Below are positions 1-57,880 of a DNA stretch of 57,880 nucleotides, piece after piece. This DNA comes from Alphaproteobacteria bacterium (GTDB lineage Bacteria; Pseudomonadota; Alphaproteobacteria; JAJTHO01; CANGYM01). The stretch's first letter is position 1. Each line of letters begins with the position of its first letter. A model generated the notes under the pieces. The model searched no databases and was not told the DNA's origin. It saw only the letters and a list, made by a program, of their open reading frames with translations. A program made the position numbers and the translations under genes. The DNA is taken from the NCBI GenBank assembly GCA_947458235.1, contig CANGYP010000002.1:1-57880 (forward strand), in the 5' to 3' direction.

Positions 1-150
1 ACCTGTTACCTGAAAGGTGGGTTCCCCCATTCGGAAATCAGCGGATCAAAGGGTCTTGGCCCCTCCCCGCTGCTTATCGCAGCCTAGCACGTCCTTCATC
101 GCCTGCAATCGCCAAGGCATCCACCAGATGCTCTTATTTACGCTTGAGGA
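1..150 (-). rRNA. rrl: 23S ribosomal RNA, 5' end (partial, continues beyond the window start)
   Basis: The reverse complement reads AAGAGCATCTGGTGGATGCCTTGGCGATTGCAGGCGATGAAGGACGTGCTAGGCTGCGATAAGC...GATTTCCGAATGGGGGAACCC, the conserved 5' domain of bacterial 23S rRNA. The 5' boundary (~140-150) is estimated from the E. coli layout. Confidence 0.9.
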
Positions 151-4531: not shown

Positions 4532-5068
4532 TCACTCTGACACCGTCACCAAGGCGGGGCGCACGATGCGATCATGCATGCGATATCCCGCCTGAATCAC
4601 CCGCACGATATGACCCTGTGGGATGGTATCGCTGGGCTCTTGCAGCATGGCTTGGTGCAGGTTGTGATCAAAGGCTTCCCCCACGGGATTGTATTTGCTG
4701 ACCCCGTGTTTTTCCAAGGTGGACAACAGTTGCTTGGCCGTCATGGTGATGCCAGTGACAAAGGTTTCCACGGGGGATCCCGCCTCGGATTCGGGAACAT
4801 GAGCAAGGGCCTGATCGAAAATATCTGCCACCGTCAGCAGGTCTTTGACAAAGCCAGAGACGGCAAATTTAATGGCCTCTGATTTTTCCCGCTCCATCCG
4901 TTTGATTGTGTTTTCGCGGTCCGCGAGGGCCCGCAGAACGTCGGCCTCAGCTTTTTCCAGACGTTCGCGCAGCAGAGTCAGCTCGTCAGGCGCCTCTGGG
5001 GTTTGGGTTTCAGTGGGGATATCCTCTGAAGGGATTTCGGTAGAGAATGATGGGTTTTGGGTGGTCAT
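4532..5068 (-). CDS. grpE: nucleotide exchange factor GrpE
   Basis: 178 aa with an acidic N-terminus, a coiled-coil (LRERLEKAEADVLRALADRENTIKR) and C-terminal GYRMHDRIVRPALVTVS typical of GrpE. Confidence 0.9.
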   Translation of the reverse strand: MTTQNPSFSTEIPSEDIPTETQTPEAPDELTLLRERLEKAEADVLRALADRENTIKRMEREKSEAIKFAVSGFVKDLLTVADIFDQALAHVPESEAGSPVETFVTGITMTAKQLLSTLEKHGVSKYNPVGEAFDHNLHQAMLQEPSDTIPQGHIVRVIQAGYRMHDRIVRPALVTVSE

Positions 5069-5110: not shown

Positions 5111-6286
5111 TTAGCGATCAATTTCCCCAAAAACAATATCCAAAGAGCCAATAATCGCCACAACGTCCGCCAGCATATGGCCACGACTGAGGAAATCCAG
5201 CGCCTGAAGAAACGCAAATCCCGGGGCGCGAATTTTGCAGCGATAGGGCTTGTTGCTGCCATCGGCAATCAAGTAAACGCCAAATTCCCCTTTGGGAGCT
5301 TCGGTGGCGGTGTAGGTTTCACCAGCAGGGACGTGATAGCCTTCGGTGTAGAGTTTGAAATGATGAATCAGGGCCTCCATAGAGGATTTCATCAAGGCGC
5401 GGGGGGGCGGGGTGATTTTGTGGTTTTCAAAATGCACGGGACCAGAGGGCATCTTTTCGATACACTGCGCAATGATACGCAAAGATTGATACATTTCCTG
5501 AATCCGGATCAAATAGCGATCATAACAATCCCCATGTTTGCCAATGGGCACATCAAAATCCATCTGATCGTACACGTCATAGGGCTGGGCTTTGCGTAGA
5601 TCCCACGGCACGCCGCTGGCCCGCAACACGGGGCCCGTCATGCCCCATGCCAAGGCCTCGTCCCGCGAAAACACCCCGATATCCACGGTGCGTTGTTTAA
5701 AGATACGGTTTTCCGTGAGCAGCCCCTCCATATCCTGAATGGTTTTGGGCAGGGCTTCGATGAAGGCCTGAATATCCTCAAGCAAGCCCGCAGGCAAATC
5801 CCGATGCACACCCCCAGGGCGGAAATAGGCCGCATGCAAACGGGCGCCGCAGACCCGTTCATAAAAGCCCATGATTTTTTCCCGCTCTTCAAAGGCCCAC
5901 AAAAAGGGGGTCATGGCCCCCACATCCAAGGCAAAGGTGGCAATGTTCAACAGATGGTTCATGATGCGAGTCAATTCCGCATACAGCACGCGAATGTACT
6001 GGCCGCGCGGGGGTGGGGTGATGCCCAGCAAACGCTCCACCGCCAAGGCAAAGGTGTGTTCCTGCCCCATGGGGGAGACATAATCCAAACGGTCGAAATA
6101 GGGAACGGATTGCAAATAGGTTTTGTATTCAATCAGCTTTTCTGTGCCCCGATGCAACAGGCCGATGTGGGGATCGGCGCGTTCGATAACCTCGCCGTCC
6201 ATTTCCAAAACCAAGCGCAACACCCCATGCGCCGCGGGATGCTGGGGGCCAAAATTAAGGGTCGTGGTTTTTTTTTCCTGCATCAT
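5111..6286 (-). CDS. nuoD: NADH-quinone oxidoreductase subunit D
   Basis: 391 aa with [38 protein letters not shown] and C-terminal DIVFGEIDR. Confidence 0.95.
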
Positions 6287-6377: not shown

Positions 6378-7703
6378 TTATAAAAGAGCCAGTCGCAAGG
6401 CTTCCACCATATGCCCCAATTTCATGCCAGCGGATCCTTTGATCAAAATCAGGTCTTTGGGCTTCAGGGTTTTTGTGAAAGCTTCACCCAAGTCTGCCAC
6501 ACTTGAGACACACAGGCCCTGTTGGTGTTTGGGCAATTTGGCGTGCAGGGCGGCCATGGCAGGGCCCACGGTGTGCACGGTGGCGATGGACTTACCCACC
6601 AGATCATCCAGCAGGGCCGTATGATACCCCGCGCTGTGTTTGCCCATTTCCAGCATATCCCCCAGCAAGGCAATGCGCCGCCCCGAACACGGCAGGGCCG
6701 CCAGCCGTTGCAACGCTGCCCGCATGGATGCGGGGGAGGCATTATAGGCATCATGAATAATCCGCACCCCCGCAATCTCTAGGATATTCCCCCGCCCCGA
6801 AGGACGCTGAAAGGTGGAAAGGGCGTCATAGGCCGTTTTTACGTCCGCCCCAGCCTCGGCCACCACACTCAAGGCGTACAGGATGCAGGCTTTCAGGGCA
6901 GGATCATCGTTATACCCTGTTAAATCGAAGGATTGCCCCTGCCATTCCCACGTTTTCCGCTCTGCCAATCCTGCGGTGGGGATGGCGGTGATGCGCTGTG
7001 CCCCGCTGTTTTGCGCGGCATCCAAAAGAACATCCGTATAGGCATGATCGTCCCCGTACAGGGCGGTGCCGCCCTTTATAACCCCTTCAAAAATTTCTGC
7101 CTTAGCCAGCGCAATGTCCCGGAGGGAGGAAAAATTGCCGATATGGGACGGGGCCACCGTGGTGATTAAGGCCAAATGGGGGCGGACCAATCGGGTGAGA
7201 TCGCGTAGTTCCCCCGCGTGGTTCATGCCCATTTCCACAATGACAAAAGAGGCTTGCTTGGGGGATCGCATCAACGTCACGGGAACGCCCAAGTGATTAT
7301 TATAATTCCCCGTTGTGGCCGTTGTGGCCCCTTGGGGGGACAGCATGACGCGCAGAAGTTCCTTGGTGGTGGTTTTCCCCACACTACCAGTGATGCCGAT
7401 GACAAAGGCATCCTCTAGCTGGGTGCGGCGATAACGGGCCATCGCTTGCATGGTTGCAAAGGTATCTGACACCCGCAGGACGCGGGGATCGGGGTGAGCT
7501 TCTGCGGACAACACCGCCCCTGCCCCCGCTGCCAGTGCCGCGTCAATATAATGATGACCATCATGGGTTTCCCCCCGCAGGCACACAAACAGATCCCCTG
7601 CGCTGAGGCTTCGTGTATCCAAAGACACGCCCGTGATGGTTAAGGGTTCGCTGCATCGTAAAGAAAGAGCCGCGTTGATTTCTGCTGTGGTCCATAATGT
7701 CAT
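6378..7703 (-). CDS. murF: UDP-N-acetylmuramoyl-tripeptide--D-alanyl-D-alanine ligase
   Basis: 441 aa from the ATG at 7703 (MTLWTTAEINAAL) with GITGSVGKTTTKE P-loop and DAYNASPASM. It has an ATGA overlap with the murE stop. The 76 upstream codons of the ORF are Arg/His-rich junk. Confidence 0.9.
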   Translation of the reverse strand: MTLWTTAEINAALSLRCSEPLTITGVSLDTRSLSAGDLFVCLRGETHDGHHYIDAALAAGAGAVLSAEAHPDPRVLRVSDTFATMQAMARYRRTQLEDAFVIGITGSVGKTTTKELLRVMLSPQGATTATTGNYNNHLGVPVTLMRSPKQASFVIVEMGMNHAGELRDLTRLVRPHLALITTVAPSHIGNFSSLRDIALAKAEIFEGVIKGGTALYGDDHAYTDVLLDAAQNSGAQRITAIPTAGLAERKTWEWQGQSFDLTGYNDDPALKACILYALSVVAEAGADVKTAYDALSTFQRPSGRGNILEIAGVRIIHDAYNASPASMRAALQRLAALPCSGRRIALLGDMLEMGKHSAGYHTALLDDLVGKSIATVHTVGPAMAALHAKLPKHQQGLCVSSVADLGEAFTKTLKPKDLILIKGSAGMKLGHMVEALRLALL

Positions 7704-9172
7704 GATAAACTGTCCCCAAAAAAAGAACGAATGGTGGCGTGATCCGAAAACGGGATGGTGGCTTGGCCGATGATTTGGCCTTGCTCGTGGCCCTTGCCCG
7801 CAATGATGACGGTGTCGCCAGCTTTGGCGGCCCGCAATGCCGCGTGGATGGCGGCGCCGCGATCGGGGATTTCCACGGCGTTGGGACATGCTGCCATAAT
7901 GGCTTGACGAATCAGAGCGGGGTCCTCGCATCTGGGATTATCGTCCGTGATGTACACCCCATCCGCCAAACGATGGGCCACAGCCCCCATCAGGGGACGC
8001 TTGCCCGCATCACGGTTGCCGCCGCACCCAAATACCACCCACAAACGGCCCGTGGTGTGGGGGCGCAGGTGATTGAGGGCCTTTTCCAGCGCATCGGGCG
8101 TATGGGCATAATCCACAAAGACAGAAAAGAGACCGCTATGGACGTTTTCCATGCGGCCCACCACCCCGCGCAGCTGGGGAAGAACGGATATAATATCCCC
8201 AAAATCATGGCCACACCCCAGCAACAGCGCAACGGCGGCGGCCACGTTTTCTGCCTGAAACGTGCCGTAAAGGGGCAGCGTTAGGGATGCTCGCGCTCCT
8301 CCGCAAACCAAGGTCATCTGCAAACCCTGCGGGGTGGGTTGTAAATCCTGAATGTCCAAATCCCGCCCTAGGCGCAGAACGCTCAGGCCCCGCGTGCGGC
8401 AAGCATCCTCCAGCGTATCGGGCAAATCTGCCCCGATAACGGCGGTATGGGGGGGCGTGAGGAGATCCAGAAACAAACGGGCCTTGGCGGCAAAATAAGC
8501 ATCAAAGGTTTTGTGATAATCCAAATGGTCCTGCGTGAAGTTGGTCCATGCGGCGGCCCTGAGGTTAACCCCGTCCAACCGGTGTTGGTGTAGGCCGTGG
8601 CTAGAGGCCTCCAGCGCCACATGCTGTATGCCGGTTTGGGCCAGATCCCGTAATTGACGATGCAGCGTAATGGGATCGGGGGTGGTTAAACTGTCCGAGA
8701 GCACAAAATCCCGCGTGGTTTGTAGCCCCAACGTCCCCATGGCGGCGGAGGGCACCCCCATGGCCATCCACAACCGATGACAGAAATTGGCCACGGAGGT
8801 TTTTCCGTTGGTGCCCGTGACGGCCACCACGGTTTCAGGCTGGGGCGCAAAGGCAGCGGCGCAAAACAGACTCAGCGCCCACCGCGCCGAGGGCACCACA
8901 AAAACTGGCACATCCGCCCTCACAGGGCGGCAGGCCACCACCGCCACGGCGCCCCGCGCTATGGCATCGGGGATAAAATCACCACTATCAACATTTCCCC
9001 CCTCTAGGGCAAAGAACACATCGCCGACTTGCACCTTGCGGGAATCAAAGGCAAGGCCCGTAAACTTGGGGAAATCGCGCGGCAACGTCACCCCCAAAGG
9101 GGCAAGGTTACTGGGCGTCGGGGGACAAAGAAACGGCATCGTCATCAGGGACCGGAGGGCTGGCGTTGGCAT
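7700..9172 (-). CDS. murE: UDP-N-acetylmuramoyl-L-alanyl-D-glutamate--2,6-diaminopimelate ligase
   Basis: VTGTNGKTS P-loop, DYAHTPDALEKAL, GCGGNRDAGKRP and the DNPR motif (ITDDNPRCEDP) of meso-DAP-adding MurE. The start is uncertain (alternative ATGs at 9145 and 9139). Confidence 0.9.
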   Translation of the reverse strand: MPTPALRSLMTMPFLCPPTPSNLAPLGVTLPRDFPKFTGLAFDSRKVQVGDVFFALEGGNVDSGDFIPDAIARGAVAVVACRPVRADVPVFVVPSARWALSLFCAAAFAPQPETVVAVTGTNGKTSVANFCHRLWMAMGVPSAAMGTLGLQTTRDFVLSDSLTTPDPITLHRQLRDLAQTGIQHVALEASSHGLHQHRLDGVNLRAAAWTNFTQDHLDYHKTFDAYFAAKARLFLDLLTPPHTAVIGADLPDTLEDACRTRGLSVLRLGRDLDIQDLQPTPQGLQMTLVCGGARASLTLPLYGTFQAENVAAAVALLLGCGHDFGDIISVLPQLRGVVGRMENVHSGLFSVFVDYAHTPDALEKALNHLRPHTTGRLWVVFGCGGNRDAGKRPLMGAVAHRLADGVYITDDNPRCEDPALIRQAIMAACPNAVEIPDRGAAIHAALRAAKAGDTVIIAGKGHEQGQIIGQATIPFSDHATIRSFFGDSLS

Positions 9173-10805: not shown

Positions 10806-10873
10806 ACCGCGAACTATAGCGAGGGGAAGGGAGATGCTCAAGCGGCTTTCAAGTGTTGGGCACCTCTATTAAC

Positions 10874-10962
10874 CGTCATTGCGAGCGTAGCGAAGCAATC
10901 CAGAAAGGCTTCAGCGCGAGGAAACCCTAGATTGCTTCGTCGCGTTGCTCCTCGCAATGACG
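10874..10962. repeat. 89-bp palindromic (MITE-like) repeat, copy A
   Basis: Left arm CGTCATTGCGAGCGTAGCGAAGCAATCCAG and right arm CTAGATTGCTTCG..CTCGCAATGACG are inverted repeats. One arm is near-identical (1 mismatch in 30) to an arm of the copy at 38051-38138. Confidence 0.8.
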
Positions 10963-11033
10963 AAAAGCTGAGGTTTTTAGATGTGCCCTGTTGTATGCGT
11001 TCACCCCAATTTCAATTTATAGTGTAAGGTGCC

Positions 11034-38138: not shown

Positions 38139-38211
38139 ATGTGCATAAGCCCCACAAAAAACACAAAGCGTTTCATAAAACAGCCCATGGATGGAATTCT
38201 TATTCTTTTTT

Positions 38212-38850
38212 TTACAGCGTTACCACCGTTTTGCCAAGAGATGGACGGGGATAGGGGTCTGGAAATACAGAGGGCACCTGCCCCCGTGCCAAGGCCAGAA
38301 AATTCGACAGCAGTTGATACCCATAATCGCTGGCGATGCTTTCAGGATGAAACTGAACGCCATACAGAGGCAGGGATTCATGACGCATGGCCATAATCAG
38401 ATCATCATCCAAGCTGCGGGCCGTCACCAGCAAGTCTGGCGGGGCACGATCCACCACCAAAGAATGATAACGGGCCACCGTATACGGCGACGGGATGTGG
38501 GAAAACAAGGGGCAATCCCCATGGGATATTTGGGATTGTTTGCCGTGCATGGGTTTGGGGGCGCGGATGATGTTGGCCCCAAAGGCCTCCCCCAAGGCTT
38601 GATGGCCCAGACAGACCCCCAGCAGAGGCCGTTTGGTATCCGCCGCATACCGCACCAACGGTACACTGATCCCCGCCTCTTTGGGGGAGCAAGGGCCTGG
38701 GGAAATGATCATGGCCTGCGGGGACAGCGCGTCAACTTCAGAAAGGGTGATGGCATCATTGCGCACAACGCGCACATCGGCCCCAATCACCTGAACGTAA
38801 TGAACCAGATTGTAAACAAAACTGTCGTAATTATCGATGAACAGAATCAT
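38212..38850 (-). CDS. anthranilate/aminodeoxychorismate synthase glutamine amidotransferase component II
   Basis: MILFIDNYDSFVYNL, catalytic GVCLGHQ and FHPES. trpG versus pabA cannot be told apart from sequence alone. Confidence 0.85.
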   Translation of the reverse strand: MILFIDNYDSFVYNLVHYVQVIGADVRVVRNDAITLSEVDALSPQAMIISPGPCSPKEAGISVPLVRYAADTKRPLLGVCLGHQALGEAFGANIIRAPKPMHGKQSQISHGDCPLFSHIPSPYTVARYHSLVVDRAPPDLLVTARSLDDDLIMAMRHESLPLYGVQFHPESIASDYGYQLLSNFLALARGQVPSVFPDPYPRPSLGKTVVTL

Positions 38851-38904
38851 CACAGGCCCCAGCGTTATGGTGTGCAGGGGCCTTTGTGTTCAGACAGTCG
38901 TTTT

Positions 38905-39396
38905 TTAAAACGACGTTCCCGTGGCCCCGACGCCCCCTGGATTGTAAAGGTTATATTCAATAATGCCAGACCAAAATTTTTCCGCTTTGTGCAGGGTGTC
39001 ACAAGCCTGACGAATTTCGGACTCCTTGGTGTGGGTGGCGGCCAAGCGATCGGCGTGACTGGCAAAAATGTCACGGAATTTCAAAAACAAATCCTTGCCC
39101 TTGGGCGTTAAGCGCACGCGGACAGAACGACGGTCATGGACGGAACGCTGCTGCTCCAGATAGGTATTCTCCACCATTTTCCGGACGTTATAGGACACGT
39201 TGGATCCCAAATAATAGCCACGGTTAATCAATTCCCCGATGGTCAATTCGTCCAAACCGATGTTAAACAAAATCAGTGTTTGGACGTTGTTGATGTCTTG
39301 GATACCGATTTTGTCCAGTTCGGCTTTGACAACTTCTAAAAACTGGCGGTGAACACGCTCTAGAGAGCGCACAAATTCAAGATAGGGTTGCAGCAC
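38905..39396 (-). CDS. MarR-family (winged-helix) transcriptional regulator
   Basis: 163 aa; the ..LTIGELINRGYYLGSNVSYNVRKMVENTYLEQQRSVHDRRSVRVRLTPKGKDL wHTH pattern is typical of MarR-like regulators. GTG start preceded by a perfect GAAGGAG Shine-Dalgarno. Confidence 0.6.
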   Translation of the reverse strand: MLQPYLEFVRSLERVHRQFLEVVKAELDKIGIQDINNVQTLILFNIGLDELTIGELINRGYYLGSNVSYNVRKMVENTYLEQQRSVHDRRSVRVRLTPKGKDLFLKFRDIFASHADRLAATHTKESEIRQACDTLHKAEKFWSGIIEYNLYNPGGVGATGTSF

Positions 39397-39546: not shown

Positions 39547-41928
39547 ATGTTACAGAGGATCTGTCTTTTTTGGGTTATCGTATTGGCCAACAGTATTCCT
39601 ATAAAGATGGATTTTATGGCAGAGTTGGAATCTTTGGCGAGGGGGGTTAAAATTTTTATTCCCCTGACTCGGTCCCCAGAAAAAATAGATTTTTACCGTA
39701 CATTGCTAGAAAATGTTGGTGTTTTGCTTATACCGGCTGAGGCTTTTGTTGATCGAACAGCGACTCCCAAAGAACTTGATCACACGCGTGCCAAGAATAT
39801 TCTTGGCAAAACTGAGGAGATGAAAGCTGTTGCGCAAGGGCTTGCCAATAATGAATCAGGTTTTTTTGCCATGTTGTTTTACCATCTGGGCTATGTGCAG
39901 GATGGGAAATCTTTGGAAGATGTGGAAACAGCATTAAGGGGCTATATTAATGGCGAAAATAATAATGAATTCATTCCTGAGTTTATCAGGGAAGACTACC
40001 GTAGTGCCGCCGCCGATTTGTTTCAGCATCCAGAAGAGATTGTTTTTGCAGTTGATGATTCCAAGTTATCGATTGTGGCTGTTCGGTTCAGCACCATTTA
40101 TGGGATGGCCGAAAAGAAAAAAAAGAGTGTTTCTAAAGAACAAAACGCTGCGCAAGCGTTGGTGAAGCTTATTGATGAAAGCTGCGCTGTTATCGCCAAA
40201 AAAGCTTGGGATAAGCATATTGCTGAAAACTCGGGTGCGAATGAGAACAAAGAAGCATTTATTGCACACAAAAAGCAAAGTCTTTTAGATGCAATCAAAA
40301 AAGATGATAAAGATTTTCCCGGCGCAATGGCGTCGACGTTTTATGAGGTGGCTGGGGGCATTCCTGCTTTTTATACGTTGGTGTTTGAGGCACTGGCAAA
40401 GAATCAAAAAGCTCTTTTGCCTGTCGAAAGTGCCAGCACCATTAATGCCGTTCGGTTAAAACGTACTGACGAAGAATTGATCGTTGAGGAAGTGTTTACT
40501 GTTGATGGTTCACCAGTTTTACGTGGCAAAAGTAAAACCCCAGAATTTCTTAGGCATCCGGATACGGCTAGAGCTTTGTATCCTAATGAACCGGTTACTT
40601 TGCGTACTTGTGTTGTTTTGCCGAATCAAAATACTACGTTAATTGATGCAAATCCAAAACAACTTGGTGGATATGGCGGCCGTAAAGAGGCTTTAGGAAA
40701 AGGAGGCCTTCTTCCATCATCTAATACTTCCTGTATCCCGATTCATCAAGCGCAAATTCCTGTTGCGGTTATTTTTAGCACTGCCGAACAGTTAGAGAGT
40801 GCCAACAATCATCCTGTCGTTCAACAGTTGCAAGAGCAGGGACATCAGGTCACATACTACACGGCAGGGGCGTTGCTGCCTGAACTTGAAAGCCAAGGAA
40901 TTTTTGATCCCAGCCAGTTTGGCCATGACCATGGAGAGGCTTTTTACCAATCCGTCACGGGGAATGGTGTGTTTGTGTTACTGCCAGAAGAGCAGACACA
41001 AGATAATCTTGATATGGATACTTTAGAATTAGCTCTGATTATTAACACTATGATCGGGAAAGCCAATGCGGATACGGGCAAGCGAATCATACGGGTTGGC
41101 GGTGAAACACTTATTTATGAGGCCATAAAAAGAACCCAAGAAATCTGTTTGACCTCAAGTCCATTGTTATCGAGTTGTCGAACAACCCTTGAAGGTTTTG
41201 CTAAAACTTTTGAAGAGGTGATACAAAAATCTTCCATACGGCTTGGAGCAAGTCCGGCTGTTCGATACCCTAATCACAGTAGGCTTTCTAAGCAAGAACC
41301 CCCGTCGCCATGTGAGGAGCAATTTATTATTCTCAGCTTTTGTGGCAGTGCTGTATGTCAAGAACCAGAAACATTGGCGTTTTCTGAAGAGAGAATGCGC
41401 GGTATTCTTGATGCCGCCATCACACAGGCAAACCAAGACCATAAAAAAATCATTGTTGTCCATGGTGCAGGTCATGAGGGCCTGATGGGAATTTTTGATA
41501 AGGTTGCATCTGAATATCAAGAGAAAAACCCTGATTTGATTGCGGTTTTGGGTGCCACAACCCCAGAATTATTGGAAACAGAAGCCGAAGGCAAGCCGCC
41601 CACACGAGGTATTCTTTATAATATCCTTTATTTACAGCGCCTTGGAATCGTTACCGGGGCTCTGAACATGTGCGTTGGGCCTGGCGGTCTTGGGACTGTG
41701 CATGAAGTGTTGGAAGTTTTGCGCCTGGGAAAAAGTATTGAAAAAGAAGGAAGAAACATCCATATTGATCTTAGTCTTTTCAGAGATGAGGATCCCCTAA
41801 AGCCCCTCTTCGCCGCGATATGTGATAATTTTGGGCAGCCTGTTGCAACAAAACAAACATTTGTGCCACAATCTGTAGCACCAGAGGTGTTGCTCACATT
41901 GTTTAATCCCAGTGCAGTGCGCCATTGA
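39547..41928 (+). CDS. large hypothetical protein with C-terminal LOG/SLOG (TIGR00730-like) domain
   Basis: 793 aa. Residues ~592-730 carry the LOG-family motifs in order: SFCGSA, IIVVHGAGHEGLMG, AVLGATTPE, LQR, and CVGPGGLGTVHEVLEVL (PGGxGTxxE). I recognise nothing in the N-terminal ~590 aa. Sampled 60-nt lines give 38-42% GC versus 53-65% in the flanks. The start is uncertain (ATGs at 39547, 39607, 39616). Confidence 0.6.
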   Translation: MLQRICLFWVIVLANSIPIKMDFMAELESLARGVKIFIPLTRSPEKIDFYRTLLENVGVLLIPAEAFVDRTATPKELDHTRAKNILGKTEEMKAVAQGLANNESGFFAMLFYHLGYVQDGKSLEDVETALRGYINGENNNEFIPEFIREDYRSAAADLFQHPEEIVFAVDDSKLSIVAVRFSTIYGMAEKKKKSVSKEQNAAQALVKLIDESCAVIAKKAWDKHIAENSGANENKEAFIAHKKQSLLDAIKKDDKDFPGAMASTFYEVAGGIPAFYTLVFEALAKNQKALLPVESASTINAVRLKRTDEELIVEEVFTVDGSPVLRGKSKTPEFLRHPDTARALYPNEPVTLRTCVVLPNQNTTLIDANPKQLGGYGGRKEALGKGGLLPSSNTSCIPIHQAQIPVAVIFSTAEQLESANNHPVVQQLQEQGHQVTYYTAGALLPELESQGIFDPSQFGHDHGEAFYQSVTGNGVFVLLPEEQTQDNLDMDTLELALIINTMIGKANADTGKRIIRVGGETLIYEAIKRTQEICLTSSPLLSSCRTTLEGFAKTFEEVIQKSSIRLGASPAVRYPNHSRLSKQEPPSPCEEQFIILSFCGSAVCQEPETLAFSEERMRGILDAAITQANQDHKKIIVVHGAGHEGLMGIFDKVASEYQEKNPDLIAVLGATTPELLETEAEGKPPTRGILYNILYLQRLGIVTGALNMCVGPGGLGTVHEVLEVLRLGKSIEKEGRNIHIDLSLFRDEDPLKPLFAAICDNFGQPVATKQTFVPQSVAPEVLLTLFNPSAVRH

Positions 41929-53911: not shown

Positions 53912-54092
53912 GATGGATACCGTTTTTCCTGCAAGATTATGATCGTTTTCCTTTGACTATAGCGGGGAGTCTTTAAAGAAAACGTAAATCGCCCCCCCTT
54001 ACCCACCATTTTTGCTTGTTCCCCAAGGGCCTAAGATTACAGGGGGTTATCATCTGGCCTTTGCAAAATAAAGATTTTACAACGATCTATTC

Positions 54093-55272
54093 CTATTTGG
54101 AATGATCCTCGGAATGGACAAGTCTTTGTATTTGTATTTGTTGTGACATTACCGAGGGGGTGATCGATGTGACTTGACCACTTATGTCCAAAAACGCAGG
54201 GACGCCATTAAAATCACCCTTCTGCTCCACAGGGCTCACCGTTCCTACTGGGTATGGGGTTGCTTGGGGTGTATATCCCCCTCGCCCCAATTGGACGGTG
54301 ACAGAAACGCCGCCGTTCTGGGGGACAAAAAACACTCCACCCGTTGTAGAATTATCTGTGCCGCTTTTGGCAGCGCCTTGGGCGTTGCCTTGGGCGTTCC
54401 GAAGGCTGGGGCTTGTCACGCCGTGATCTGTTAGCCATCCAACGAATGCCGTGCTGGTATTGGCAACTTGCCAAAGGGCTTTTGTATACTCAGCGACATC
54501 AACATGTCCCTGGCGAGACGGTAAACGTTTTCCCGTTTGGGCATTAAGACACAACTCAGATATGCGTGCGACGGGGTAAGGGCCCGATCCCCCTTCCACA
54601 CCATCGGGATGTCCTGAACCGTTAAATATCAAAACTTTTGATAGGTTTATGGTGGTATTCCTTAAAAGAAATCCTTGCAAGTTATGCCCAGCTTGGGCTG
54701 CAATATTTTCAAAGGACTTGGGTAAGGGTTTGTTAGGTCGATAGGCAGCAAGAATCTCTGCGAGCCCATTATCAGACGTTTCCCAAGTATGTTTTATCAA
54801 GTCACCCCATGTCGCGGCTTTGTTATCATTAAAAAATGATGAACCTCGGGCTTTGGCGGCAGCAATAACCTCTGGGGGAACGGGGTTATCAAGATTTTCC
54901 GTTTTTCCCCCTAAAACATCTTGGAAAACGCGAAACATTGTCAGGGCTTTTACAGTCGAGGCCGCCGTGTGATTGGATGGGATATTCCCTGCGGGCACGG
55001 ACGCAGATATTGCCCCGTTTTCGTTGATGCGTACCGTAACGGGTTGGGTGCTTATTGGGGGGGGGGGGGGGGGTGATGGTTGCAGCCGAGCAATACGGGG
55101 TGTTGCTAATCCGAGCGTTGATCTCCTGAGCATCTTTTATGACTGCGATCAGGGTTGAGATGGTGGGGTCAGTTGAAGACAGTATAGGGTTGGCTAAAGG
55201 AAGGATATTCCCTGTGGTCATAAGTTGCGCACCCCAAAACAATGAGGCGGCGGAGGATACGATAAGACTCAT
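54093..55272 (-). pseudogene. class A beta-lactamase-like serine hydrolase, reading frame broken at a poly-C(17) tract (phase-OFF state, pseudogene or assembly error)
   Basis: The downstream frame (54093-55133) carries SxxK (AASTVKAL), SDN (TSDNGLAEIL), an E-x3-N omega-loop-like motif (SELCLN) and KSG (AAKSGTD). The upstream frame (55272 down to the tract) supplies a hydrophobic N-terminus (MSLIVSSAASLFWGAQLM) and starts 17 nt after the protease stop. The two frames meet in the C17 tract, and both read poly-Pro across it. Confidence 0.6.
55057..55073. repeat. homopolymeric tract G17 (C17 on the coding strand)
   Basis: Counted directly: 17 consecutive G at 55057-55073. It encodes PPPPP(P) in both open frames. 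Confidence 0.95.
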
Positions 55273-55289
55273 AACCCAGACCCCCCCCC

Positions 55290-56282
55290 TTATCGTCTCA
55301 ACTGCACCAAAATCGGGGGCGTTAGGGCGGCGTTGGGGGTGTCCTCCATCATCACCTGATGGATGCGATTGATGGCGTCTTGGTTTAATTTAACGCCCAC
55401 ACCCCAAGTGTCGCCGTTTTGCCATTCCCGCTGGCTGGAAATCACGCCCACCATAGCAAAGGTATCATACAGGGGATCATAGGCGAATATGGGACCGCCC
55501 GAAGTCCCCTCGAACGATAGGGCGCCATGTTCAAACTGATTGCCTTTGCCTGGGGATTCGGCGTTGCGATAGGTCAGGGTTGTGCTGCGATAAAGTTTTC
55601 CATCTTCGCCCAAGGGGGGCTTGACGGGATACCCCGAAACGGTTAGGGCCATGGCAGAGCGCACATCGCTGGGATGAAAATGGGCATCCGTCACCAAGGC
55701 CACGGGGACGCTGCCCCACTTGGTCCAAAAGGCCTCGCCGTAGGGGGCCGATTCCAAGTGCACGAGCGCCACATCTTCGTTGTTATCAAGGGCCGGCCCC
55801 GAAGAGTTCATATATTCCACAGAGGCAATCCCCACAGGGGGATAGGGAATGTTGGATCCGTTGCGGGCGGCAAAAAATTTGCCGTCTTGGTAATAGCCCT
55901 GACCCGCATCATAAAAACAATGGGCGGCGGTTAACACCACCTTGGGGGCGATCATGGTGCCCGTACATCCATTGTATTGGCCCATGCCAAAGCGAATTTG
56001 CAGCTGTCCCACATACATCCATGGATAGGCCAAGGTATCTGCCACGGGCTCCATTGCGGGGGTCTTGGGGGCGGCATCTCCCTGCAACACGGGGCCCATA
56101 TCGCCGTAACGGGCTTGATCTTGATAGCCTTCCCCAGCCCGTTGATAGGTGCTGAGCAAAGCATAACGCAGAGCATCGTCCAAACGAATCGACAGGGGCT
56201 TGGTCTCGCCGGCCAGCGCAAAAGCCCCTTGCGTCACAACACAAAGCACCGTAAAAAAAAGACTCTTAAAAAAAGGGCGCAT
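55290..56282 (-). CDS. secreted trypsin-like serine protease (S1 family)
   Basis: Signal peptide MRPFFKSLFFTVLCVVTQGAFALAG and catalytic triad contexts VLTAAHC (His), NEDVALVHL (Asp) and EGTSGGPIF (Ser). Confidence 0.8.
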   Translation of the reverse strand: MRPFFKSLFFTVLCVVTQGAFALAGETKPLSIRLDDALRYALLSTYQRAGEGYQDQARYGDMGPVLQGDAAPKTPAMEPVADTLAYPWMYVGQLQIRFGMGQYNGCTGTMIAPKVVLTAAHCFYDAGQGYYQDGKFFAARNGSNIPYPPVGIASVEYMNSSGPALDNNEDVALVHLESAPYGEAFWTKWGSVPVALVTDAHFHPSDVRSAMALTVSGYPVKPPLGEDGKLYRSTTLTYRNAESPGKGNQFEHGALSFEGTSGGPIFAYDPLYDTFAMVGVISSQREWQNGDTWGVGVKLNQDAINRIHQVMMEDTPNAALTPPILVQLRR

Positions 56283-57030: not shown

Positions 57031-57880
57031 CGCTGGCTTTTCAAGACATCATTCTGACGTTGCAGCAATTCTGGTCGCGCCAAGGGTGTGTGTTGTTGCA
57101 ACCCTATGACAAAGAAATGGGGGCGGGCACGTTTCATCCGGCCACGGCCCTGAAATGCTTGGGGCCAGATCCATGGTACGCCGCGTATCCTCAGCCCTGT
57201 CGCCGCCCCACGGACGGCCGCTATGGCAACAATCCCAACCGATTGCAGCATTACTATCAATTTCAGGTGATTTTAAAACCCAGTCCTGACCATGTTCAGG
57301 CGTTGTATCTGTCCAGTCTGGATGCCATCGGGTTATCCCTGAACGATCACGACATTCGCTTTGTTGAGGATGATTGGGAAAGCCCCACCCTAGGCGCGGC
57401 AGGATTGGGGTGGGAGGTCTGGTGTGACGGCATGGAAATCACCCAGTTTACCTATTTTCAGCAAATGGGGGGTATTCCCTGTTCCCCTGTTTCGGTGGAG
57501 TTGACCTATGGCCTAGAGCGTCTGGCCATGTACATTCAGGGCCGCGAAAATGTTTATGATCTGGCGTTTAATGATCCCGCATCCCGTTACCCCATGACCT
57601 ACGGCGATGTGTTTCTGGCCAACGAACAACAGCAATCGGCGTATAATTTTGAGGCCGCGGATCCCACAGCCCTAAAACACGCCTTTGAAACGGCAGAAAA
57701 GGAATGCCCCCGTCTGCTCGGGCTGGGATTGATCTTGCCCGCCTATGAACAGGCCATTGGGGCCAGCCATTTGTTTAACCTGATGGATGCGCGGGGCATG
57801 ATTGGGGTGAATGAACGCGCCCGCACCATTGGCCGCATTCGGGCCTTGGCCAAGGCCTGCTGCGAGGCCTATACAGCACA
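57027..57880 (+). CDS. glyQ: glycine--tRNA ligase alpha subunit (partial, runs off the window end)
   Basis: Absent from the ORF track because there is no stop in the window. My translation from the ATG at 57027 ([40 protein letters not shown]...[23 protein letters not shown]...) is colinear with E. coli GlyQ. ATGA overlap with the gpmA stop. Confidence 0.9.

Follow-up and report, generated by a model that had tools for sequence, protein, structure and literature searches.

Can a gene whose two halves lie in different reading frames on either side of a long cytosine run be a gene that is switched on and off, or is it broken, misassembled or recoded? The question is raised by a locus in a 57,880-nt stretch of alphaproteobacterial DNA (hereafter the window), where two overlapping ORFs of the minus strand, one of 127 aa (54889..55272, ATG at 55270-55272) and the other of 346 aa in a different frame (54093..55133), share a homopolymer of 17 cytosines on the gene strand (G17 on the plus strand, 55057-55073). 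A preliminary description had proposed that this run joins the two frames of a single beta-lactamase-like gene and acts as a candidate phase-variation switch. The length of 17 was exact on recounting, and translation confirmed that both ORFs read through the tract as poly-proline. As had also been proposed, the start codon and a hydrophobic, signal-like leader are supplied by the upstream frame. The parts of the gene are the following.

54093..55272, minus strand: whole split gene, one CDS at C16 (392 aa) or C19 (393 aa)
55074..55272, minus strand: 5' segment in frame A, comprising the ATG, an N-terminus that is hydrophobic and resembles a signal peptide, and a linker bearing the PYC motif (55090-55098)
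55057..55073, minus strand: C17 homopolymer, encoding Pro68-72 and carrying the frame break; 15 or 16 nt in other assemblies of the strain
54093..55056, minus strand: 3' segment in frame B, with a class-A-beta-lactamase-like domain; stop codon at 54093-54095

Editing of the tract in silico reproduced the frame arithmetic that had been put forward, in which 16 or 19 cytosines fuse the frames into a protein of about 390 aa and 17 leave them apart. With C16 a single ORF of 392 aa is obtained and with C19 one of 393 aa, while C15 or C18 places a stop codon immediately 3' of the tract and C17 or C20 yields the out-of-frame product of 127 aa. The tract lies early in the coding sequence (codons 68-72 of 392). 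Two characters of contingency loci are found here: a long mononucleotide run (about 7-8 nt or more) in the 5' coding part, and a one-base length change that toggles between the full-length frame and early termination.

Such a run is exceptional in its surroundings. The second-longest G/C run in the window has 9 nt, and G15 appeared in none of 100 dinucleotide-preserving shuffles of the window. A G/C run of at least 17 nt has an order-0 expectation of 1.5e-5, and about 0.009 runs of at least 15 nt are expected on extrapolation of the rate at which run lengths fall off in the window itself (by a ratio of 0.36 per base). In 620 kb of fetched alphaproteobacterial loci, the tract is the sole homopolymer of 15 nt or more. 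Only one long tract is present in about 62 kb, so that nothing points to a larger repertoire of phase-variable genes. On a smaller scale, the density of 7-9 nt homopolymers in the window is unusually high, with all four bases represented (81 runs of at least 7 nt and 29 of at least 8 nt in 58 kb), and the majority of these lie inside intact genes. Other overlapping ORF pairs (murF/murE/ftsI, murJ/trpC) were considered as possible homopolymer frameshifts and rejected, being normal adjacent genes with in-frame upstream extensions; the assembly is therefore not generally error-ridden.

Homologues establish that the two frames form one gene. When the fused sequence was searched against 5.8 billion protein clusters, only four of them matched. 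The closest homologue, P0001 (386 aa), is 91-94% identical and collinear with 100% of the fused query; it passes from its MSLIVS... start directly into the domain, and the TPPPPP of the window is replaced by APPP. Two others, P0003 and P0004, are 54-57% identical (BLASTP local alignment), are encoded in one frame and have no poly-proline at the tract site. An exhaustive HMM search of 1.84 billion representatives adds one fragment, P0005, while P0006, which came up in the representative search, was discarded as a repetitive false positive. P0001, P0003, P0004 and P0005 all run in a single frame from the N-terminus through the PYC motif into the domain, and P59-Y60-C61, located 5' of the tract, is invariant across the family. 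Since the homologues cross the tract in one frame, both ORFs are one gene, and since PYC is invariant, the upstream frame belongs to the protein. The preliminary description had made its case depend on the orthologues not leaving the upstream frame outside the protein, and they do include it.

With five real members among 1.84 billion cluster representatives, this is a very small orphan family. Scans of genome contig and metagenome contig collections with the family alignment returned no relatives, and the gene is present in none of the species representatives among the 185,579 species of the genome collection. In public gene calls, the OFF alleles are given a product of 281 aa, P0002 (54093-54938 in the window), which starts at Met112 (MFRVF...). 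As this start lies 3' of Ser105, the deposited protein lacks both the active-site serine and the leader. The annotation can now be corrected from the 281-aa fragment of the gene callers to the real product of 392 aa, predicted to be exported.

The downstream frame carries three motifs of serine beta-lactamases.

54948-54959, minus strand: STVK motif, S105-T-V-K108
54768-54776, minus strand: SDN motif, S166-D-N168
54360-54368, minus strand: KSG motif, K302-S-G304

The class A triad of SxxK, SDN and K[ST]G is thus found in order, as in TEM-1, BlaC and KPC-2, and none of the four members compared departs from it at S, K, S, N, K or G, P0004 having SHN. The spacing from SxxK to SDN is 61 residues, against 60 in class A. 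On the other hand, the window protein has about 30 extra residues between SDN and KSG, and an equivalent of the omega-loop Glu166/Asn170 was not identified, this region giving no reliable alignment. Profile comparisons gave a weaker signal: Pfam PF13354 (Beta-lactamase2) scores 20.0 bits on the window protein (E = 4.8e-4), below its gathering score of 22 and hence below the threshold of the curated family, and it matches three of four members at E <= 1, with 4.8e-4 as the best value. The fused protein has no match in NCBIfam, a PDB sequence search returned nothing meaningful, and hhalign against TEM-1 aligned the SDN region alone, with negligible probability.

AlphaFold models of the full-length protein and of the domain only are of low confidence (pLDDT 33 and 40). 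Their secondary-structure elements follow an order that fits the fold: two strands, then a helix that begins with the serine, then a helical domain, and three strands after KSG. When the low-confidence domain model was submitted to Foldseek, the top 50 hits were all class A enzymes (BlaC, KPC-2, TEM-1 and others) over about 260 columns, with a best E-value of 0.011 and a TM-score of about 0.22. We regard the protein as probably belonging to the SxxK / class-A-like fold, from whose known members it has diverged strongly. The proposed beta-lactamase character therefore stands for the motifs of the downstream frame and falls short at the Pfam gathering score; as an assignment it appears weak but consistent. 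With respect to export, a relative that will return below, L095, has the canonical signal peptide MSFRGHFVSLFSAALCLAQP, of which the N-terminus of the window protein, MSLIVSSAASLFWGAQ, is a weaker homologue. The protein would thus be exported, and it is putatively active.

The neighbourhood of the gene combines a conserved upstream partner with a variable slot.

55290..56282, minus strand: upstream trypsin/V8-like serine protease gene, 330 aa, with signal peptide
55273..55289, minus strand: spacer of 17 nt from the protease stop codon to the ATG, TAA-G9-TCTGGGTT-ATG, with G9 at 55281-55289
54033..55282, no strand assigned: strain-variable cassette, split gene with short flanks

In the contigs of P0001 and L095, the protease gene likewise precedes the gene. 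The G9 run is likely to be the ribosome-binding site. A scan for promoters and terminators near the gene gave nothing above shuffle expectation; as no such element stands out, the split gene would be co-transcribed with the protease gene.

The chromosome around this slot is unremarkable. The window is an ordinary chromosomal segment with aat, glnA, grpE, murF/murE/ftsI, pst genes, anmK, purB and bc1-complex genes, along with murJ, trpC, aas, dsbD, ispDF, rodA/pbp2/mreCD, clpSA, recJ and gpmA. Comparison of its NuoD with the proteins of uncultured Alphaproteobacteria and of Rhodospirillales-like metagenome-assembled genomes gave identities of no more than 80%. The sample codes (MEHR18, KRAE22) may point to a freshwater lake, and the host is probably a plankton organism of fresh water. 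Several features of the window deserve mention in their own right. A complete nuoD (5111-6286, minus strand) stands alone in an unusual order between grpE (4532-5068) and murF (6378-7931), with no other nuo gene beside it. A palindromic MITE-like repeat of 132 nt (10857-10988) reads GGGCACCTCTATTAACCGTCATTGCGAGCG...CTCGCAATGACGAAAA.CTGAGGTTTTTAGATGTGCCC; a second copy lies beyond the window end (995-1126 in contig L001 and 909-1040 in contig L083), giving at least two copies of 98-99% identity. The 5' end of a 23S rRNA gene (1-147, minus strand) lies about 400 nt from a divergent dihydrouridine synthase gene (554-1591), and neither a 16S gene nor a tRNA is found within the window, which suggests an unlinked 23S rRNA gene. 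At the thresholds used, Pfam matches neither of two large plus-strand ORFs, 39547-41928 (793 aa) and 38191-39111 (306 aa).

The occupants of the slot differ between relatives. In contigs L093 and L094 (2259-3879), genes for NfeD and Band_7 proteins replace window positions 54033-55282, and in L084-L088 the protease gene is followed by Metal_resist, GT9 and histidine kinase genes. The two flanks of L093 differ in their identity to the window (96% and 99%), a sign of possible recombination, and one cassette breakpoint falls within the G9 run at 55281-55289. On these comparisons of gene content, the gene appears to be dispensable in relatives.

The history of the tract itself can be read from the more distant relative L095, whose protein is about 66-69% identical in amino acids. 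In DNA, identity to the window reaches 95.6% in the flank with the protease gene but only 80% in the gene itself, the 5' end of which is not alignable. At the tract site, L095 has AAT CCC CCA ATA, that is, C5. For P0001, a tract of about C10 was inferred from the protein alone (three prolines, APPP). With C5 in L095, three prolines in P0001 and C15-17 here, the run has expanded in this lineage. Codon usage provides the material for such growth: CCC makes up 55% of the proline codons, and GGG, at 40%, is the commonest glycine codon, a preference that explains the many short C and G runs. As CCC is the preferred proline codon, a pure-CCC proline run requires no special selection. The possibility that the alternative-frame ATG at 55133 is a designed internal start was rejected: this ATG is missing in L095, and in the window it has no Shine-Dalgarno sequence.

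A slipped-strand switch predicts that tract length differs within the strain. Further contigs of the strain were located via the neighbouring protease gene, and all tract lengths given here are contig consensus lengths.

Window: C17
L001 (ENA ERZ27280167, 62,245 nt): C17
L002 (Logan SRR6754089): C17
L083 (ENA ERZ28613002, sample SAMN08331108): C16, in frame, the contig encoding P0007
L091 (ENA ERZ27263785, 62,243 nt): C15
L092 (ENA ERZ27280134): contig end falls within the tract (C7-A-C10)

The cluster of P0002, the window's own gene call, has a second member, P0007, a protein of 392 aa that is residue-for-residue identical to the predicted C16 fusion. An in-frame C16 allele exists in public assemblies, and the fusion predicted for 16 cytosines has been found in nature. 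The comparison of tract lengths in related assemblies, which the preliminary description had recommended, returned 15, 16 and 17, and not a single in-frame length everywhere.

These alleles share an otherwise clonal background. Outside the tract, same-strain assemblies differ by 1-2 SNPs over 7-18 kb, and the G9 run, located 208 nt from the tract on the plus strand, has 9 nt in all of them. With only SNPs outside the tract and a constant G9, the tract is the sole indel-variable site in this clonal sequence. Window position 57854 is G in the window and A in L001, L083 and L091, so the window is a separate consensus of the same strain. L001 and L083 are separated by one SNP only, at a distance of 6,136 nt upstream of the tract and either close to the second copy of the MITE-like repeat or inside it. 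The three C17 sequences (window, L001 and L002) may come from the same sample, and the independence of the assemblies is uncertain.

The reading that we favour, and to which we would give a little better than an even chance, is that a hypermutable intragenic C-tract toggles an accessory gene in and out of frame, the window carrying an OFF allele. In this reading, 54093-55272 is one accessory gene, the pure CCC run at its codons 68-72 has grown in this lineage, and its product of about 392 aa would be exported and contain a divergent domain of the class-A-beta-lactamase / SxxK type. A G/C run of such length would gain and lose single bases by slipped-strand mispairing at replication. Lengths of 3n+1 (16, 19) would give the full-length protein and be ON, while the others would end early, C17 with the 127-aa product and C15 or C18 with a stop immediately after the tract. 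The C17 of the window would then be OFF, C16 ON, and C15 a second OFF allele of the same strain. The length differences would arise in cells, and switching would be reversible and frequent. The context is that of contingency genes, with an early tract in a strain-variable accessory gene whose product is predicted to be exported. Of the suggested ON/OFF switch, what has been secured is that ON and OFF lengths occur among the assemblies; they would have arisen in the cell, but may also stem from library PCR, sequencing or assembly.

A technical origin is for this reason the first rival to be weighed. There would be one true in-frame length, most likely C16, while 15, 17 and the broken contig would result from stutter, indels and assembler choices. 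An in-frame C16 assembly is on record, as this explanation expects, and the A that interrupts the tract at the end of L092 (C7-A-C10) is clearly an error of the reads. Furthermore, the place where the assemblies vary, besides 1-2 SNPs, coincides with the one place where technical errors are frequent. On the other side, the modal length under stutter is as a rule the true one or one base shorter, and modes spanning 15-17 are hard to obtain from one true length; three separate consensuses, those of the window, L001 and L002, have 17, and yet another gives 15. Moreover, some real heterogeneity is to be expected in any case at a G/C run of 15-17 nt, which, as is established for mononucleotide repeats, cannot stay stable in vivo. 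Illumina sequencing produces spurious or unreliable indel calls in homopolymers longer than about 14 nt (PMC8808543), a range that includes a tract of 15-17 nt. Given that the lengths compared are contig consensuses and that they exceed this limit, a technical origin is a serious rival, though on balance we regard it as rather unlikely. Were it correct, the gene would be an ordinary one, and the case would serve only as a warning against relying on frameshifts in metagenome-assembled genomes when they fall at homopolymers of more than 14 nt.

If the variation is real, it could still be the first step of decay. Codon bias towards CCC together with slippage would have produced the tract in a dispensable gene, and C17 and C15 would be the onset of pseudogenisation, a real variation without selection. 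Several observations agree with this. The gene is missing from related strains that have other cassettes in the slot, though such dispensability suits a selected switch equally well; the CCC preference and 7-9 nt runs are common genome-wide; the family is tiny; and OFF alleles are the majority of those observed. The gene copy of L095 independently carries a frameshifting deletion mid-gene (L095:723-763, at the KEMA / HPNLQQF junction), unconnected to any homopolymer, which is either a pseudogene mutation or an assembly error. In the strain of the window, by contrast, the alleles lack the marks of a fixed pseudogene, namely several lesions or a loss of downstream conservation. The lesion is a single one, the C15, C16 and C17 alleles do not differ in any of the 325 residues that follow the tract, and no second lesion is found in 320 downstream codons of any allele. 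The frameshift is therefore recent or reversible, and the downstream frame is intact in the OFF alleles, as in contingency loci. The ON allele also persists in the same clonal background, and back-mutation to ON is expected to be frequent at this length, so that the OFF state is not fixed. Neutral decay thus appears improbable to us. Selection is a separate matter from slippage. Of the three lengths observed, one is ON, a proportion that would also result if tract length drifted neutrally. That C15-17 constitutes a selected contingency locus, controlling an orphan secreted class-A-beta-lactamase-like enzyme in an environmental alphaproteobacterium, is a possibility that we advance with clear reservations.

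A last alternative would make the C17 gene functional as it stands. A +1 ribosomal frameshift by tRNA-Pro at CCC-C, or slippage of RNA polymerase, would restore the frame and yield the C16 product. Consecutive prolines stall ribosomes, a subject familiar from EF-P, and wherever in C17 a +1 shift takes place, the result is exactly TPPPPPISTQ, with the junction peptide ITPPPPPISTQPVTVR. CCC-C is also the textbook +1 slippery motif for tRNA-Pro (PMC7577736), and the tract amounts to a chain of overlapping CCC-C sites. A programmed site should nevertheless be conserved, and the tract has 5, about 10, 15, 16 or 17 nt in relatives, among which P0001, P0003, P0004 and P0007 are in frame; no stimulatory element was identified either. 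As the architecture is not conserved in orthologues, recoding would account at most for leaky expression from the OFF state and not for a programmed event, and we consider it very improbable as an explanation of the locus.

The slipped-strand reading has well-known counterparts. The intragenic poly-G and poly-C loci of Neisseria, Campylobacter jejuni, Haemophilus and Helicobacter (e.g. hmbR/hpuA, PMC3786947; C. jejuni, PMC3025981) undergo translational phase variation by slipped-strand mispairing. They share with the present locus an early G/C homopolymer in a strain-variable accessory gene for an exported (here predicted) product, with one length in three in frame and an intact downstream ORF, and, as far as the consensus lengths of the assemblies reflect the cells, the coexistence of ON and OFF alleles in an otherwise identical background. 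They differ in that the host here is an uncultured alphaproteobacterium known only from metagenomes and not a host-adapted pathogen, in that one tract is found in about 62 kb, its 15-17 nt being at the long end of the usual range, and in that the alleles are known from assemblies and not from switching in clonal culture. Closer in this respect are organisms that are not classed as phase-variable, with the ESX-1-associated tracts of Mycobacterium tuberculosis (PMC11898584) and the poly-G of Klebsiella pneumoniae rmpA (bioRxiv 10.1101/2025.09.12.675794). There, as proposed here, one homopolymer indel reversibly toggles one gene without a large repertoire of loci; those tracts are shorter and have measured phenotypes, whereas the present locus is known from sequence alone. 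Our literature search found no precedent in a host such as an uncultured alphaproteobacterium. The mechanism is of the classic Neisseria/Campylobacter contingency type, and the gene family and the host lineage are new.

Should the length differences prove biological, this locus would represent a clean natural case of homopolymer phase variation outside the usual pathogens, with ON (C16) and OFF (C15, C17) alleles of one clonal strain already present in public metagenome assemblies. The orphan family, with its class-A-beta-lactamase-like motifs, has a putative activity that could be of interest by itself. If the switch is moreover a selected one, repeat-based bet-hedging, so far documented mainly in host-adapted pathogens, would also exist in environmental bacteria, and the proportions of ON and OFF alleles could be followed directly in metagenome time series.
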